Origin: Elusimicrobiota bacterium
GTDB lineage: Bacteria; Elusimicrobiota; Elusimicrobia; UBA1565; JACRDR01
Direction of reading: 5' to 3'
DNA length: 64,000 nt
Assembly (NCBI GenBank): GCA_041694815.1
Contig: JBGFSC010000035.1
Location: 1 to 64,000 of the forward strand
Positions 48,001-54,000 of the stretch are shown here, in pieces (positions within the stretch are counted from its first letter, which is position 1; the number at the start of each line of letters is the position of its first letter). Made by a program: the position numbers.

Positions 48001-51000
48001 GGCCCCGAATCCGTAGAACCCCAGGGTCTCGGCCTCGCCGGCCAGGCGCAGGGCGCGGTAGCCGATCATTCCGGCGCAAAGAAGCGGCGCGGCGCTTAAG
48101 TCGTTGTAGCCTTGGGGGATGGGAAAGCAATAACGGCTGTCCGCGACCGCGAATTCGGCGTAGCCGCCGTCGATTTGGTACCCGGTGAAGCGGGCCCGGG
48201 GACAGAGGTTTTCCCTCTCGCTTAAACAGTAACGGCATTCCCCGCAGGAAAAGCCCAACCATGGGACGCCGACGCGCTGGCCGGGAGCGAAGCCTTCGCT
48301 CCCCTCGCCCAGGGCTTCCACGGTCCCCACGATCTGATGTCCCAGCACCAAGGGCCGTTTCGGATTCTCCAGCTCGCCGTCGGCGATGTGAAGGTCCGTG
48401 CGGCACACCCCGCAGGCGCGCACGCGGATCAAAAGCTGACGTTCGCGCGGCACGGGCCGCGGAAGCTTTCGGGCCGCGAGCCTGCTCCCGGGCTTTTCCA
48501 ACAGCATCGTTCTCATGCTCACGGATGAATCCCACCTTTACTATAATGGCTCGGTATGAGCTTCGAGTGGCCGCATTCTAACAGTTTCGCCTATCCCGAG
48601 GAGACATGGAAAAACTTCTAAACGATATCGAACTCAAGGACGAATGCGTCCTGCACCCTCCTGAACTGGCGCGCTTTGACCGCGGTGATTTAAGCGTATT
48701 CCTCGATGGCGAATCCCCGAATTGGATCGCTCTCGACGGGCGCGGCGCGGCGCTTTTTAAGCTCTTCGACGGCCGGCGCGCTCTCGGGGAGATCCGTCGC
48801 CTGCACGGGAACTCGAGCGGCGCCGACGCGGGGAAATCATGGCTCGACGTGCATTCCTTCGCCCGGGAGCTGCTGCGCGCGGGGATGCTTTCCTTCTCCC
48901 CCGTCTCGCGCCCGGGCTACGCGGGCCGGGCCGCGCATCTAACACCCAGCCGCCTTTCGGAATTCTGGCTGCACCTGCTGCAAACCTGCAACATCGCCTG
49001 CACGCATTGCCTGGTCTCCTCCGGACCTTCCGGGGAAAAAGGCCCTGAGGCTTCCTTTATAAAAGGCCTAATCGATCAGGCCCATGCCCTGGGGGCGCGC
49101 CGGTTTTACTTCACGGGAGGAGAGCCCTTCGCCCGGGAGGATATCCTCGAGCTCATCGGCCATGCCGCGGGGACGAAGGAGTCGGAACTCGTGTTGATGA
49201 CGAATGCGACGCTGCTCACGCCGCAGCGCCTGGCCAAGCTCGAGGGCTTAGGCAAGGAGCGGATCAAGTTCCAGGTCAGCCTTGACGGGGCGACGGGCGC
49301 CGTCAACGACGCCATCCGGGGGAAGGGCGTTTTTGAGAAGGCCTCGGCGGGCCTACGCGCGCTTTCTAAGCTCGGCTTCGACTGCTCGTTGACCGCCGTC
49401 GTCACCAGCGCGAACCTTCGGGACCTTCGGGGCCTGCCGGAATTAGCCGAGCGGCTCTTTGCCAGGTCGCTGCACCTCATGTGGGCGCACAAGCGCGGGC
49501 GCATCCTCGAGGAGGGCGGGGCCTTCCCGTCCAATCCCCAACTGCTGGAGCTCGCGCGCGCTCTCCGCGGCGAATGCCGGCGCCGCGGGCTAATGTTCGA
49601 CAACTCGGAGTCGCTGCGCCGCCGGGCCGACGGCAGGCCGGGGGTCAAGAACGATCTCGGCAACCAATGCTGGCAGAGCCTCTGCCTCTACCGGGACGGG
49701 AAGGTGTACCCGTCGGCGGCGATGGCCGGCGAGGCCCCGCTGGAGTTGGGCGACGCCCGCTGGCTTCCCCTCGAGTCGATATGGCTAGACAGCCCGACGG
49801 CGCGGCGCTTCCGGGAAGCGAGCGTGGTGGACGCCTCCGATCCTTTCCGTTTCCTGAGCGGAGGCGGAGACATCGAGCATTCCTACTTCTTTTCCGCCAA
49901 CGGCGGCCCGGGCTCCTTGGTCGGGCACGATCCCTATTATGGGCTGATCGTCGAGCTGATGAAAGACGAGATCTTCGACATGGCGGAGCAGGCCAAGTCG
50001 CGCTTCAACGCCCGTTCGGGGCTGAGGCCCCCCGTCGTGCTGCGGGCCATGGGAGAGGGCGCTGTGGGCTGCTCGAGCGACGCCTTGGATTGGCTGGGCG
50101 AGGGCGGCAAGCCGGAGGTCGTGCGGCTGACGCATTCCAACTGCGTGCTCTCCTTCGACGTCGAAAGGCCCTACCGCGTCGTCCGGCAATTCTACGCGGG
50201 CGCCGCGCTCAAGCCCAAGGAGGATCTCTGCTGTCCGGTGAAATACGCCGAGGACGAGGTCGGGCATATCCCCAAGGACGTGCTCGAGCGCTTCTACGGC
50301 TGCGGCTCGCCGGTCTCTCAAGCGGGGCTACGCTACGGTGAGACCGCCTTGGACCTGGGGTCGGGCGCCGGCATTGACTGCTTCATCGCGGCAAAGAAGG
50401 TCGGCCCGAAGGGCAAGGTGATCGGCATCGACATGACAGGCGAGATGCTGGAGGTGGCCAGGCGCTGCCAGAGGCAGGTGGCGGAGTCCCTCGGCTACGA
50501 CGCCGTCGAGTTCCGCGAGGGGCTCTTGGAGAAGGTGCCCGCGGCGGACCGGAGCGTCGATCTGGTCACCTCCAACTGCGTGATCAACCTCTCCCCCGAC
50601 AAGCGGAAGGTATTCGCCGAGATATGGCGCGTGCTCAAGGACCACGGGCGCATGCTCGTAGCCGACATCGTTTCCGATCGGCCCGTGCCGCTCAACCTAC
50701 AGGCCCACAAGGATCTCTGGGGCGAGTGCATCTCCGGCTCGCTTTCCGAACAGGAGTTCCTCTACGGCTTGGAGCGCGCCGGATTCTACGGCGTCTCGGT
50801 GCTCAAGCGCGACTTTTGGAAGGAAGTCGAGGGTTATCGATTCTATTCCCTGACGGTGCGGGGATACAAATTCGAGAAGAAGGCGGGCTGCCGCTTCCTC
50901 GGGCAGGCGGCCGTCTACCTCGGGCCCCACAAGGCGATCATCGACGAGGAGGGGCATCTCTTCCCCCGCTACGAGCCCGTCGAGGTCTGCACCGACACGG

Positions 51001-54000
51001 CGGCCAAACTCTCGCGCCCTCCCTACGCGGGCCAATTCCTGATCTCCGGGACTTCCTCACCCCAAGCCCCGGAGCCAGAGCAGGCCTGCTGCGCGCCGGG
51101 AGGGGCCTGCTGCTAAAAAGCGAAAGAAGGGCCCTGCTCTTCGCCAAGGCTCCGGCGCCCGGCCTCGTCAAAACGAGGCTTTGCCCCCCCTTGTCGAAGG
51201 AAGAGGCCGCCGAGCTTTACCGGGCCTTCGCGCGCGACAGCCTATCGCTGCTGCTGCGGGCCCTGGATCCCGAGGAAATCCAAATCGCCTACGCCGGCGC
51301 GGACGGGGATTCGGAGCCCGGCTGGCTCCGCGGCGGGATCGCCGTGGAGCATTTCGCGCAGGAAGGGGCGGATCTCGGGGAACGGCTTCGCCGCGCCTTC
51401 GAGCGATCCCTCCGGCAGGCCAGCCTTGTTGTGATCATCGGTTCCGACACGCCTCACCTGGATCCAAGGGAAATCACCCGGGCCTTCGACGCGCTGGAGA
51501 GAAAGGATATGGTCCTGGGCCCCGCCGAGGATGGCGGGTACTATTTGATCGGACTTAAATCCCCGCAGCCGCGGCTTTTCGCCGATATTCCATGGTCGAC
51601 CGCTCGGGTTCTTGGCCTCACGCTTGAACGGGCCGAAGAGCTTCGCCTCTCCACCGAGCTTTTGCCGGCATACCGCGATATAGACACCGCCGATGATTTG
51701 AGCCAGTTAGCGGGGCTGGAAGAGACGACCCCCCTGGCATTTACCAGAAAGGTCCTGAGCGCCTTGCCGGATTTTAATTTTTCGGCCGCGGGGTCGACGC
51801 CAGGGCGTCGAAGGCGGCCTTAAGGCCCTGGTGGACGGCGGCGATGTCGGCGGGCTTCCAGGAGCGGGGTTCCGCGCGCAGGAAGCTGGTCTTATCGATG
51901 CGGTTGTCGAAGCGCGCCGCCGGCAGGTAGAACACGCGGCCGTTGGAGCGCACGCTCACCGTGCCGGGCCGGGCCGCGTTCTTCTCGAGCCAGTCCATGT
52001 CGTCGCAGCCGTAATCGCGGCGCATGACCTCAGGCGGCACTCCGTGGTGCAGGATGGAGCCGGGATCGTCGGGGTCGGCCCGGGCCTCGTTCTTGCGCCG
52101 GGACTCCTCGGGGGTCACCCACACGTACAAGATCGCCGCCTTGCGCAATATCGCGGGGTCTAGCTGCGACAGGGAATAGCGGTAGCCGAGCGGGGCCGGC
52201 AGGGGCATGGAGGAGCCTTCCGGGCCTCCTCGGGCGAACTCGATGACCAAGGTGCGGCCCTCCAGGCTTTTCGGGATGTTGCGCCGCTTATCGGCCTGCA
52301 TCTGCCGCGCTTCCTTTTCGAGAGCCCGGATCAAGGCGCGCCGCGACTTGGCCGGTATCCGGGCGAGCCGGGCGGCCAGGCCCGCCTTGCGCGCCGCGGC
52401 CTCGATGCGCGAGAGCAGGCGCGCGGCCGCCGAAGCCGGCGCGCGCGCGCGCCGGGCTTTGAGATCGCGGTAATCCTCGTTGACGAGATGCACCAGAGTG
52501 CCCCAATCCCGGGGGTCCCGGAACGGGCGCTCCGGGGACTCGAAGAAGATCCCCGCATGTCCCAGGCGGGCCAATTCCTGGTCGATGCGTCGCATCGCGT
52601 GCACGTACGGGTAGTCGTCGAGCTGGGTCGTGGGGCCCAGATGGAACTGCTCCTGGCATTGTTTGGGGGAAAGATGGGCCAGGTAGCGCCTCACCTCGGA
52701 TTTTCCGGAGGCCGGAAGCGCCAGCAGCAGGACGGTGTCTAAAATCTCCTTCACGCCGCCTATATTACTGAAAAACGACGGCGGGCGCCATGCGCCGATT
52801 CTTGAGGCATCGGCTGCCGCGCCGGTCCTCTCGGGCCTTGAGCCGGCCGGCGAGCTCCGCCGCGATCTGGGCGATCTGTCCGAAATGCGTCAGCGGCGCT
52901 TCCTCGTTGGTCACCAGCGCGATCGAGAGGCTCAGCATGGGGAAGGCGGCGTCGAAGCGGCGGGCGGCCCGTTTCGCTATCGCTTCCGCCCGCTCGGGTT
53001 CGCTGACGATCACGAAACCGTCTCCGCCCAGATGTCCCACCAGATCGCCACGGCAGCCCGGCCGCTGGGAGGCCTCGAGAAGGATGTCCGCCGTTTCCTT
53101 CAATAGGGCGTCCCCCCGGCCGAAGCCGTGGAGGCCGTTATAGCCCTTGAAATCGTCGATGTCGACGTAGAGCAGAGCCAGGCCTCCGCCCTCGCGCAGG
53201 CGGCGTTGGATATGCGCTGCGATCGTCGGCTCCCCGGGAAGCAGCGTCACCGGATTGGCCGAGAGCGAGCGGCGCTCGTTGCGCAGCAGCCATTCCACCC
53301 GGGCCGTCAATTCGAAGAGATCGAAGGGCTTGGCGACGTAGTCGTCGGCGCCGAGCTCAAAACCCCTGAGCCGGTCCGCGGGCGCGCCATGGGCCGTCAT
53401 GAGCACGATCGGGATCGTCGCCGTGGAGGGACACTCGCGCAGCTCCAAGATGAGCTGCTCGCCGCTTTCGTGCGGCAGACCCAGGTCCATGAGTATCAGG
53501 TCGGGATGCTGTGTCTTGGCGATCTCCAGGGCTTGGGCGGCGTCGGCGGCGGTCAGGACCTGGTAAGGGGATCGCTCGAAGGCGCGGCGCAGCAGCTGGC
53601 GGATCCCGGGTTCGTCTTCGGCCAACAGTATTTTGAGCATGCGTTCTCTCCTATACCCCGCAGCGGCGGTAGAGCGAATAGGCTTGCTCGTCGAGCGAGA
53701 TGAAGCGCTTGACCTCGTCCGGCGTCATCTCCGGCACCTCCTGGAGCCCGTACCAATAATGCATGCGCTCGTAGAAGGTCTTCTTGAGGAAGGGATCGGT
53801 GATGGTGGAACCGGGGTTGACCTTGATATGGGCCAGGGAGGCCTTGTTGCGCAGCTGGATGGCCCAGTAGCGGGCCTTGAGGTCGAGCATGCTTTCCTCG
53901 AGCCGGTCCACGCGCTCGGGGGCGTTCTCGCAGGAGTCCTGGGCCGGGGCGTCGCGCATGTCCACGGCCTCCTCGGGGAAATCGGGCGCTTCGACGCTGA

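Follow-up and report, generated by a model that had tools for sequence, protein, structure and literature searches.

The window analysed here, a 64,000-nucleotide stretch of an Elusimicrobiota bacterium genome (contig JBGFSC010000035.1), encodes an 836-aa protein that takes the place of ArsS, a radical SAM enzyme, in related genomes and therefore probably makes carbon-arsenic compounds by a route with its own evolutionary origin. The single chain stands in for ArsS and ArsM together and not for ArsS by itself. The proposal draws on anatomy, conservation, gene context and distribution. We found no description of such a fusion enzyme in the literature searched, although supplements or paywalled papers may contain one. 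The features of the locus are:

48606..51116, + strand: fusion gene (836 aa; RRE, radical SAM barrel, cysteine-depleted SPASM, Cys tail and long-form ArsM)
48645..48890, + strand: PqqD-like/RRE domain, about aa 14–95 (Pfam PqqD E 0.0038; three strands, then three helices)
48951..49640, + strand: radical SAM partial barrel, about aa 116–345 (PF04055 65 bits, cut-off 29.5)
49641..50003, + strand: SPASM-fold domain, about aa 346–466 (usual auxiliary-cluster cysteines absent; fold matches anSME, CteB and SuiB)
50004..50165, + strand: tail/linker, aa 467–520 (C489 in 111/118 homologues; H510-S-N-C513 at 50133–50144, C513 in 118/118)
50166..51053, + strand: ArsM/AS3MT-type methyltransferase with its C-terminal domain, aa 521–816 (PRK11873 E 3.5e-68; C542/C543, C566, C658, C708)
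51087..51113, + strand: C-terminal double Cys-Cys tail, aa 828–836 (terminal CC in 110/118, two CC pairs in 66/118)
51110..51823, + strand: TIGR04282 (DUF2064, CofC-like) gene, about 237 aa (196 bits, cut-off 134)

Anatomy and conservation of the fusion protein

The reading frame is intact from 48606 to 51116 on the forward strand, with no internal stops, and an AlphaFold model of the product has a pLDDT of 90.4 and a pTM of 0.90. The survey's finding that the fusion is widespread held up: 118 of the 120 best matches (the query counted) are longer than 780 aa and 51–74% identical, the two short exceptions measuring 715 and 689 aa, and the named homologues come from Elusimicrobia, Nitrospirae, Nitrospinae, Wallbacteria, Deltaproteobacteria and Omnitrophica. 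Relatives are also present in MAGs of Nitrospirota, Acidobacteriota, Gemmatimonadota, Planctomycetota and Desulfobacterota. The reported conservation of the cysteines was likewise recovered, with C128/C132/C135 and C542, C543, C566, C658 and C708 found in all 118 aligned homologues. A promoter and terminator scan of the locus gave no signal beyond that of shuffled sequences.

The survey's statement that the radical SAM domain is distinct from ArsS was tested and holds. Its match to the ArsS model TIGR04167 is far under the cut-off (E 9.4e-17, 61–64 bits vs 300) and covers model positions 3–150 of 303; the alignment with the ArsS profile spans 148 columns only, at 20% identity, and the C-terminal half is different. 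DUF3641 (PF12345) gave no match on the fusion at E 0.01, whereas the ArsS of locus L068 scores 185 bits. In a barrel tree, from which 5 of 110 rows without the anchoring motif were dropped, 13 ArsS sequences form a clade (support 1.0) with the fusion outside it; the deep nodes are weak (0.5–0.75) and leave deep relationships unsettled. The CxxxCxxC motif (C128, C132 and C135, at 48987–49010) and a GGEP in the barrel are invariant, and conserved residues particular to this half are H290, W293, H295, R297, D422, E424 and H425. Peptide maturases are its best structural matches: the model superposes on CteB, RRE included, over residues 19–463 (Z 29.6, rmsd 4.3, 407 aligned), and its RRE superposes on CteB and TigE starting at aa 14–19. 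Model residues up to 510–521 superpose on viperin, BlsE and full-barrel enzymes.

A new finding is that the auxiliary-cluster cysteines are gone from the SPASM domain in 118 of 118 close homologues and still present in deeper relatives. None of the 118 keeps YPC, CxxCx5CGGG or GGGC; YPS replaces YPC, D412, S418 and D422 occupy Cys positions, and the fusion protein has no Pfam SPASM match. Mean column conservation over the 118 homologues is nevertheless 0.66 in both the barrel and the SPASM region. More distant relatives that have full SPASM motifs carry TusA or non-ArsM methyltransferases as fusion partners, which indicates that descent does not tie the radical SAM unit to arsenic. The invariant Cys513 marks the end of this unit, its placement relative to the cluster being read from alignment end-points only. 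An H-C-x-C-like tail also terminates stand-alone and permuted relatives, and the tail cysteines are a candidate As(III) tether. In a second model, the linker has low confidence except for one strand.

The PqqD-like N-terminus described by the survey is weak in the fusion itself (E 0.0038, 18 bits, below the cut-off of 23.4), but homologues P0024 and P0030 score above that value. Two of its residues, P38 and W40, do not vary, and R46, G47 and W79 are conserved in at least 90% of homologues; in the DUF5714 forms and the permuted forms of the family the domain has degenerated. Among 655 same-strand small ORFs (15–90 aa) lying no more than 3 kb from 26 fusion genes there was no conserved precursor-peptide gene, the sole matches being shadow frames common to two congeneric genomes, and the two-gene unit of the locus has no space to accommodate such a gene. 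The RRE probably survives as a structural leftover from an ancestor that was a peptide maturase.

For the ArsM part, the PRK11873 E-value of 3.5e-68 was reproduced; the bit score, which the survey had omitted, is under that model's cut-off (230–233 vs 263). Indeed, this part falls below the cut-off of every curated NCBIfam ArsM model, with 148–152 bits against the arsenosugar ArsM model NF038099 (cut-off 400) and 209–214 bits against the arsinothricin ArsM model NF040538 (cut-off 500). The class I SAM-binding fold and the ArsM C-terminal domain are both present (CrArsM/CmArsM matches, aa 526–820); CrArsM matches at E 4.5e-42 across aa 526–816, and the structural match to 6cx6 has a Z of 28.2. 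The four As-binding cysteine positions, present in 118/118 homologues, align with those of solved enzymes, and C542/543, C566, C658 and C708 correspond to the As ligands of ArsM enzymes. The Cys-Cys tail also ends ArsMs adjoining ArsS or a family of ~295-aa radical SAM proteins. The only ArsM-like domain found in the host genome is that of the fusion, and no ArsS was found there.

Gene context and alternation with ArsS

Both glycosyltransferase-type genes named by the survey were recovered, TIGR04282 beside the fusion (196 bits, cut-off 134, at 51134–51700) and TIGR04283 on contig C9 (212 bits, cut-off 182, at C9:42687–43358). No in-frame ATG, GTG or TTG lies upstream of the region matched by the TIGR04282 model, and its probable start is a CTG (51107 or 51110) preceded by GGAGG, which makes the gene overlap the fusion stop. 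When neighbourhoods were re-tested on 12 same-order relatives, TIGR04282 or TIGR04283 was adjacent in 10, and PiT, the other neighbour reported, was just upstream in 7 (one a fragment), with a weak downstream match in an eighth. The 24 fusion loci of the class carry TIGR04282 or 04283 (16), PiT (15), VTT (15), a PRK06370 FAD oxidoreductase (11) and DUF547 (8), and the same accessory families flank ArsS at L068, L144, L146 and L147. At 7 of 23 fusion loci, several of them on short contigs, no core accessory gene lies within 8 kb. In the host genome there is no acr3, and VTT, DUF547, DUF3047 and a clade-type PiT were not seen.

The fusion (24) and ArsS (25) are equally common among 381 genomes of the class. 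TIGR04282 is present in 22 of the 24 fusion genomes and 20 of the 25 ArsS genomes, compared with 70 of all 381. These 70 comprise 22 with the fusion only, 20 with ArsS only, none with both (6.3 expected) and 28 with neither (Fisher 1e-4 for the near-exclusion, a value inflated by kinship). A second lineage of 13 genomes repeats this pattern (fusion 4, ArsS 6, both 0, with TIGR04282 in all 10), and in other phyla 22 of 24 fusion genomes have TIGR04282. Strict mutual exclusion does not hold: both genes occur in one genome of the class (G467) and in 3 of 24 outside it (G260, G262 and G265). A sub-type without C489 and with three AuxII cysteines coexists with ArsS in all three genomes that carry it. 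That the fusion stands in for ArsS, as the survey proposed, is thus well supported by co-occurrence and near-exclusion, with the qualification that exclusion is not strict and that at least one other protein can fill the slot. This is the ArsS-like ~295-aa radical SAM family, seen in at least 9 of the 28 genomes with neither fusion nor ArsS, either near the TIGR04282 gene or elsewhere in the loci covered; in about 19 of the 70 genomes with TIGR04282, none of these three was seen close to it.

Radical SAM-ArsM fusions also involve ArsS (G004, G009) and the ~295-aa type (G237), and the radical SAM type of the present fusion is joined to different clades of ArsM, the domains standing in two orders. 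Two candidate fusion genomes were discarded, G227, which carries an unfused ArsM of 326 aa along with arsR and pst genes, and G237, whose fusion is of the ~295-aa type; excluding these, the fusion is present in 6 of 251 genomes of the phylum sample. The 80 homologue loci listed, which were retrieved with ArsM-derived patterns and are no census, include at least 17 of the ~830-aa type, at least 6 of the DUF5714 type and at least 1 of the full-SPASM type.

Proposed reaction and rival explanations

We propose that the fusion is a bifunctional C–As bond-forming enzyme, one chain that would do the work of ArsM and ArsS, and we consider it reasonably likely that its ArsM domain makes dimethylarsenite and its radical domain adenosylates this product, toward arsenosugar-type compounds. 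Homology argues strongly that the ArsM domain would methylate As(III) twice with SAM via C542/543, C566, C658 and C708. The trivalent arsenical would then be handed to the radical SAM unit, probably held there by C513 (with C489). By analogy with ArsS, the CxxxCxxC cluster would cleave SAM, the 5'-deoxyadenosyl radical would add to arsenic, and the As-centred radical would return an electron to the same cluster, yielding 5'-deoxy-5'-dimethylarsinoyladenosine (DDMAA). ArsS adenosylates DMAs(III) redox-neutrally, according to PMC13598754. Auxiliary clusters are dispensable in a redox-neutral cycle, and this would account for the SPASM domain having lost them; the cysteine-depleted SPASM, the invariant Cys513 and the lack of a precursor peptide fit such an ArsS-like reaction. 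In the weakest step, TIGR04282 and TIGR04283, whose roles rest on NCBIfam names, may attach the arseno-ribose to a further moiety, giving a conjugate of the arsenosugar or arsenolipid type. Where the operon is fuller, arsenate would enter through PiT, and reducing power would come from the FAD oxidoreductase. The co-occurrence with TIGR04282, the near-exclusion with ArsS, the accessory genes common to both, the existence of all three radical SAM types as ArsM fusions, and the apparent lack of ArsS and of any other ArsM-like domain in the host genome speak for this reading. Against it speak the four genomes with both genes, the 28 TIGR04282 genomes with neither, the limited alignment to ArsS, the likeness of the structure to peptide maturases, the ArsM scores under cut-off, the accessory genes missing from the host genome and from some fusion loci, and the non-ArsM partners of more distant relatives.

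The product could be a different organoarsenical, formed by ArsL-like 3-amino-3-carboxypropyl transfer, by adenosylating As(III) or MAs(III) ahead of the methylation step, or by coupling of As to another small-molecule radical, with the glycosyltransferase-like genes acting on it. A barrel that is not ArsS and has its own conserved residues, the coexistence of the C489-lacking sub-type with ArsS, and the higher score of the ArsM part on the arsinothricin model (214/500 bits) than on the arsenosugar model (152/400) point in this direction. However, near-exclusion with ArsS and common downstream genes imply a shared intermediate, and, as an indirect check, the best 25 of 53 NCBIfam matches to the fusion include no ArsL model; we hold a different organoarsenical to be unlikely. 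We see still less reason to assume that arsenic is not the in-vivo substrate of the cluster, with the ArsM-like domain methylating another soft nucleophile (selenium, antimony or a thiol) and the radical domain adenosylating or otherwise modifying the product. All four ArsM cysteine positions are invariant, the best structural matches of the domain are As(III) methyltransferases, a close stand-alone relative adjoins arsR and pst genes (L135), and ArsM plus ArsS make the arsenosugars of Synechocystis, as bioRxiv 2022.09.23.509062 describes. Such a non-arsenic role would agree with the ArsM scores under cut-off, the absence of acr3 from the host genome, the frequent occurrence of TIGR04282 without a recognised partner, and the existence of ArsS as a selenoprotein family in some genomes (PMC13188914).

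A functional RRE would imply that a peptide or protein encoded elsewhere is modified, for example by putting a methylarsenic group on a radical site to give an arseno-peptide. The RRE, radical SAM and SPASM folds do match CteB, SkfB, TigE and SuiB, and the RRE residues named above are conserved, but the fusion alternates with ArsS, which has no RRE, indicating a small-molecule role. The missing small ORF, the erosion of the RRE in other forms and the loss of the auxiliary clusters also oppose this explanation, which we regard as very unlikely. A small probability is given to the wider suggestion that the RRE recruits a peptide or protein to which the radical domain attaches ArsM-made methylarsenic, or that the C–As bond is of a type made by neither ArsS nor ArsL; the likeliest place for such divergent chemistry is the ArsS-coexisting sub-type. 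Finally, the lost SPASM cysteines and split or frameshifted copies at two loci (L016, L021) could signal a decaying or non-catalytic radical SAM half and, in effect, a detoxifying ArsM. This is highly improbable given the invariant CxxxCxxC and GGEP and the equal conservation of barrel and SPASM, and the N-terminal-only close matches are mostly on short contigs or flagged partial.

Comparison with known systems

The radical SAM enzymes named in the literature searched as forming C–As bonds are ArsS and ArsL. The fusion family would add a third, whose recruitment from among the peptide maturases apparently involved the loss of auxiliary clusters and fusion with ArsM. Because the fusion is as common as ArsS in this class, surveys of complex organoarsenical synthesis that use ArsS as marker would overlook over half of the candidate producers in groups of this kind. 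If RRE recruitment or a novel C–As bond proved true, a new class of organoarsenical or an arsenic post-translational modification would follow. As the candidate is one protein of 836 aa whose predicted product is clear, one assay could test the hypothesis, and the fusion would offer a model for methylarsenite channelling between two SAM-dependent active sites.

Like the ArsM plus ArsS (TIGR04167) pathway of Synechocystis sp. PCC 6803, the fusion pairs a radical SAM enzyme with a long-form ArsM, has TIGR04282/04283 in the genome, often adjacent, along with the same accessory families, and closes its radical SAM unit with a Cys-containing tail; it differs in being one chain, which also has an RRE and a SPASM fold depleted in cysteines. 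Among solved structures, none of ArsS was found. With ArsL plus ArsM of arsinothricin synthesis the fusion shares predicted radical SAM C–As chemistry coupled to ArsM, and C-terminal cysteines as candidate As(III) ligands; As(III) is bound by the C-terminal cysteines of ArsL (bioRxiv 2024.02.01.577332; 10.64898/2026.04.29.721666). Unlike that system, the fusion lacks the RCCLKC C-terminal arsenic-binding motif, is far under the arsinothricin ArsM cut-offs and has arsenosugar-type neighbours. The RRE-radical SAM-SPASM maturases (CteB, SkfB, TigE, SuiB, PqqD/PqqE) have the domain order and fold of aa 14–466, whereas the fusion has neither auxiliary-cluster ligands nor a precursor peptide that we could find, and adds the Cys tail and ArsM. 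ArsM/AS3MT enzymes (CmArsM, CrArsM, human AS3MT) share with it the fold, the four cysteine positions and the C-terminal domain (Z 24–28, 33–37% identity); in contrast to them, the ArsM of the fusion is joined to a radical SAM unit and scores under all curated NCBIfam ArsM cut-offs.

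A single-frame fusion and its predicted structure

The gene under study (g00957) was claimed to join an RRE, a radical SAM domain and an arsenite methyltransferase (ArsM), and occupies the following position in the window:

48606-51116, + strand: fusion gene, a single open frame of 836 aa

The fusion proved to be real. In the AlphaFold model (pLDDT 90.4, pTM 0.90), the stretch from residue 19 to 463, which takes in the RRE, superposes on CteB, a sactipeptide maturase (Z 29.6, rmsd 4.3, 407 residues aligned), and residues 540-820 on CmArsM (Z 28.2). Pfam detects a radical SAM domain (65 bits) and a methyltransferase domain. 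With the NCBIfam models, the survey's E-value of 3.5e-68 for the arsenite methyltransferase PRK11873 was reproduced (230 bits, below the cut-off of 263), and the model of the arsenosugar enzyme ArsS, as claimed, scores far under its cut-off (61 of 300 bits, E 9.4e-17). The homologue counts were likewise obtained again: 118 of the 120 best matches, query counted in, exceed 780 aa, at 51-74% identity. The ArsM cysteines reported as conserved (C542/543, C566, C658 and C708) are present in 118/118 homologues, and this part shares with the ArsMs found beside ArsS a long C-terminal domain and a terminal CC, both of which short ArsMs lack.

The SPASM-fold part keeps neither YPC nor CxxCx5CGGG nor GGGC in any of the 118 homologues, so its usual ligands are lost. 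Deeper relatives are graded, with full SPASM motifs at locus L050, three AuxII cysteines only at L010, L012, L018 and L024, and none in others. Behind this part lies a tail with C489 (111/118) and H510-S-N-C513, of which C513 is invariant (118/118). The tail belongs to the radical SAM unit, because stand-alone and permuted relatives stop at its H-C-x-C-like end. Structural alignments with viperin, BlsE, NosL and BioB extend to residues 510-521, and these end-points suggest that the tail closes the radical SAM barrel.

The gene directly after the fusion is a full TIGR04282 member (196 bits, cut-off 134), as reported, and probably starts, judging from the sequence, at a CTG overlapping the fusion stop; TIGR04283 was also confirmed on contig C9 (C9:42687-43358). 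On either side of this two-gene unit lie a divergently oriented alcohol dehydrogenase gene and a convergent uncharacterised gene. A genome search found no ArsS in the query genome, and acr3, VTT, DUF547 and clade-type PiT were not found in it either; it holds a stripped version of the cluster with one ArsM domain. A tRNA-Ser(GCT) (window 46868-46958, - strand) and, following it, a HicB-HicA pair (47076-47530) lie some 1.6 kb upstream of the fusion gene, and this region (46868-47530) is a possible insertion site. The window also holds a 3925-aa ORF (33117-44894, + strand) whose best Pfam match is no better than E 0.03, and a stretch of lower GC (58556-60622) that contains an HTH gene, an addiction-module antidote and a toxin-antitoxin pair of the BrnT/CopG type.

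Alternation with ArsS in TIGR04282 genomes

ArsS, for which Xue 2019 and Cheng 2021 are said to be the primary papers, was compared with the fusion across the 381 genomes of the class, where kin are non-independent and many genomes fragmented: the fusion occurs in 24, while 25 have ArsS, 21 of them with a score above cut-off, and 70 have TIGR04282, 67 of them above cut-off. TIGR04282 is present in 22/24 fusion genomes and 20/25 ArsS genomes. The 70 TIGR04282 genomes comprise 22 with the fusion only, 20 with ArsS only, none with both (6.3 expected) and 28 with neither. A phylum sample of 251 genomes, which overlaps the class set and from whose count G227 and G237 were removed, contains 6 fusion and 11 ArsS genomes, none with both and all with TIGR04282; a second lineage (13 genomes) has 4, 6 and 0, respectively. 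Among 24 fusion genomes of other phyla, 22 have TIGR04282 and three (G260, G262 and G265) also have ArsS. The survey's finding that the fusion stands in for ArsS is well supported by this co-occurrence and near-exclusion, but exclusion is not strict: these three and G467, a class genome without a TIGR04282 match, carry both. The fusions of G260, G262 and G265 (L018, L020 and L023) lack C489 and keep three AuxII cysteines, and this sub-type, accompanied by ArsS in 3/3 genomes, may have a different function.

Near the 24 class loci we found TIGR04282 or TIGR04283 (16), PiT (15), VTT (15), a PRK06370 oxidoreductase (11) and DUF547 (8); in a mixed set of 23 loci, a glycosyltransferase was present in 8 and a core accessory gene in 16. 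The unpublished genome G253 (L011) is one of the 24 other-phyla genomes, contributes one locus to the mixed set, and is a row of alignment A2, which was used for the second-lineage, SPASM/tail-family and class searches. Fusion copies at L016 and L021 are split or frameshifted, and in G258 a different contig carries an additional copy that is intact.

Relatives of the fusion and other radical SAM families in the ArsS position

A profile of the SPASM-fold part and tail matched 78 representatives of 50%-identity clusters (E <= 1e-30, fragments included). Among its best 100 matches, 40 lack auxiliary ligands and carry an ArsM-like domain further downstream; in 9 more, a downstream ArsM goes with other motif states, 3 have the ArsM upstream, and 48 are partial or without ArsM. 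The fusion exists as a form of ~830 aa and one of ~1000-1090 aa with a C-terminal DUF5714, a domain resembling the selenoprotein MbdU. The latter form was seen in Desulfobacterota-type genomes (L029, L031-L035), which have TIGR04282 elsewhere in 6/6 cases and ArsS in 0/6. The permuted proteins P0311, P0315 and P0316, in which a short-type ArsM precedes an RRE-radical SAM-SPASM unit with YPC and AuxII cysteines, are an independent fusion event, and relatives with full SPASM motifs carry a different methyltransferase, or TusA, as fusion partner. ArsS forms a clade of its own (support 1.0) in a tree of the barrel, built from 179 columns and 105 rows after 5 rows had been dropped; the deeper nodes of this tree do not resolve.

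TIGR04282 loci were inspected in 26 of the 28 genomes with neither enzyme, and further loci were included for G225 and G237. A radical SAM gene of ~295 aa lies with TIGR04283, TIGR04282 or ArsM in nine genomes (G518, G519, G485, G491, G481, G300, G517, G225 and G237), and in G237 a radical SAM domain of this type is fused to ArsM:

L141:7877-8764 (G225): ~295-aa radical SAM family
L170:6236-7102 (G518): ~295-aa radical SAM family
L191:1-1548 (G237): ~295-aa radical SAM family
(proteins P0156-P0240 in part)

This family aligns with ArsS end to end (276 columns, probability 99.3), scores far below the ArsS cut-off (69/300 bits in L141), and has a barrel near that of the fusion (E 9e-42); fusion and ArsS align over 148 columns only. 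It fills the ArsS position in at least nine genomes. From these loci and alignments, one and the same position is occupied in alternation by three separate radical SAM families, each fused to ArsM at least once. In some genomes the neighbours of the ~295-aa gene encode a metallophosphoesterase and an MFS transporter.

A possible fourth filler occurs in G117 (L137:8038-9090): a BioB/HydE-like radical SAM gene placed between TIGR04283-TIGR04282, which it immediately follows, and the genes for VTT and an FAD oxidoreductase. PiT and a merR-merT-copZ set precede TIGR04283-TIGR04282 in G225 (L140:10057-11262), and genes for a DUF2282 peptide and an enzyme of the MbnB/TglH/ChrH family come after it.

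Proposed reaction and comparison with known systems

According to the cited sources, ArsS adenosylates dimethylarsenite, DMAs(III), to 5'-deoxy-5'-dimethylarsinoyladenosine (DDMAA) in a redox-neutral reaction in which an arsenic radical re-reduces the cluster (PMC13598754), ArsM of Synechocystis provides the ArsS substrate from a co-transcribed gene (bioRxiv 2022.09.23.509062), and C-terminal cysteines of the arsinothricin enzyme ArsL bind As(III) (bioRxiv 2024.02.01.577332; 10.64898/2026.04.29.721666). By comparison with this chemistry, we lean towards a reading in which the ArsM domain would methylate arsenic, the tail cysteines would hand the methylated arsenical over to the radical SAM unit, and the latter would adenosylate it without net redox change. 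This would explain why the fusion alternates with ArsS, why the auxiliary clusters were lost and why no precursor peptide was found. A single [4Fe-4S] cluster is predicted for this sub-type.

That the fusion makes a different organoarsenical is a weaker but credible alternative, and action on a non-arsenic substrate is improbable. Modification of a peptide through the RRE is more doubtful still, since none of 655 small ORFs near 26 fusion genes is conserved. There is very little chance that the radical domain is dead.

The literature searched, supplements aside, yielded no description of the fusion, in agreement with the claim of an undescribed family distinct from ArsS. PMC12159101, PMC13188914, PMC10456119 and PMC12608789 were consulted as well, and what was read of the last two had no bearing on it. 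With the maturases it shares the fold but neither the auxiliary ligands nor a detectable precursor. Its score, C-terminal domain and place in the tree set it outside ArsS, whereas in gene context it resembles the pair of ArsM and ArsS.
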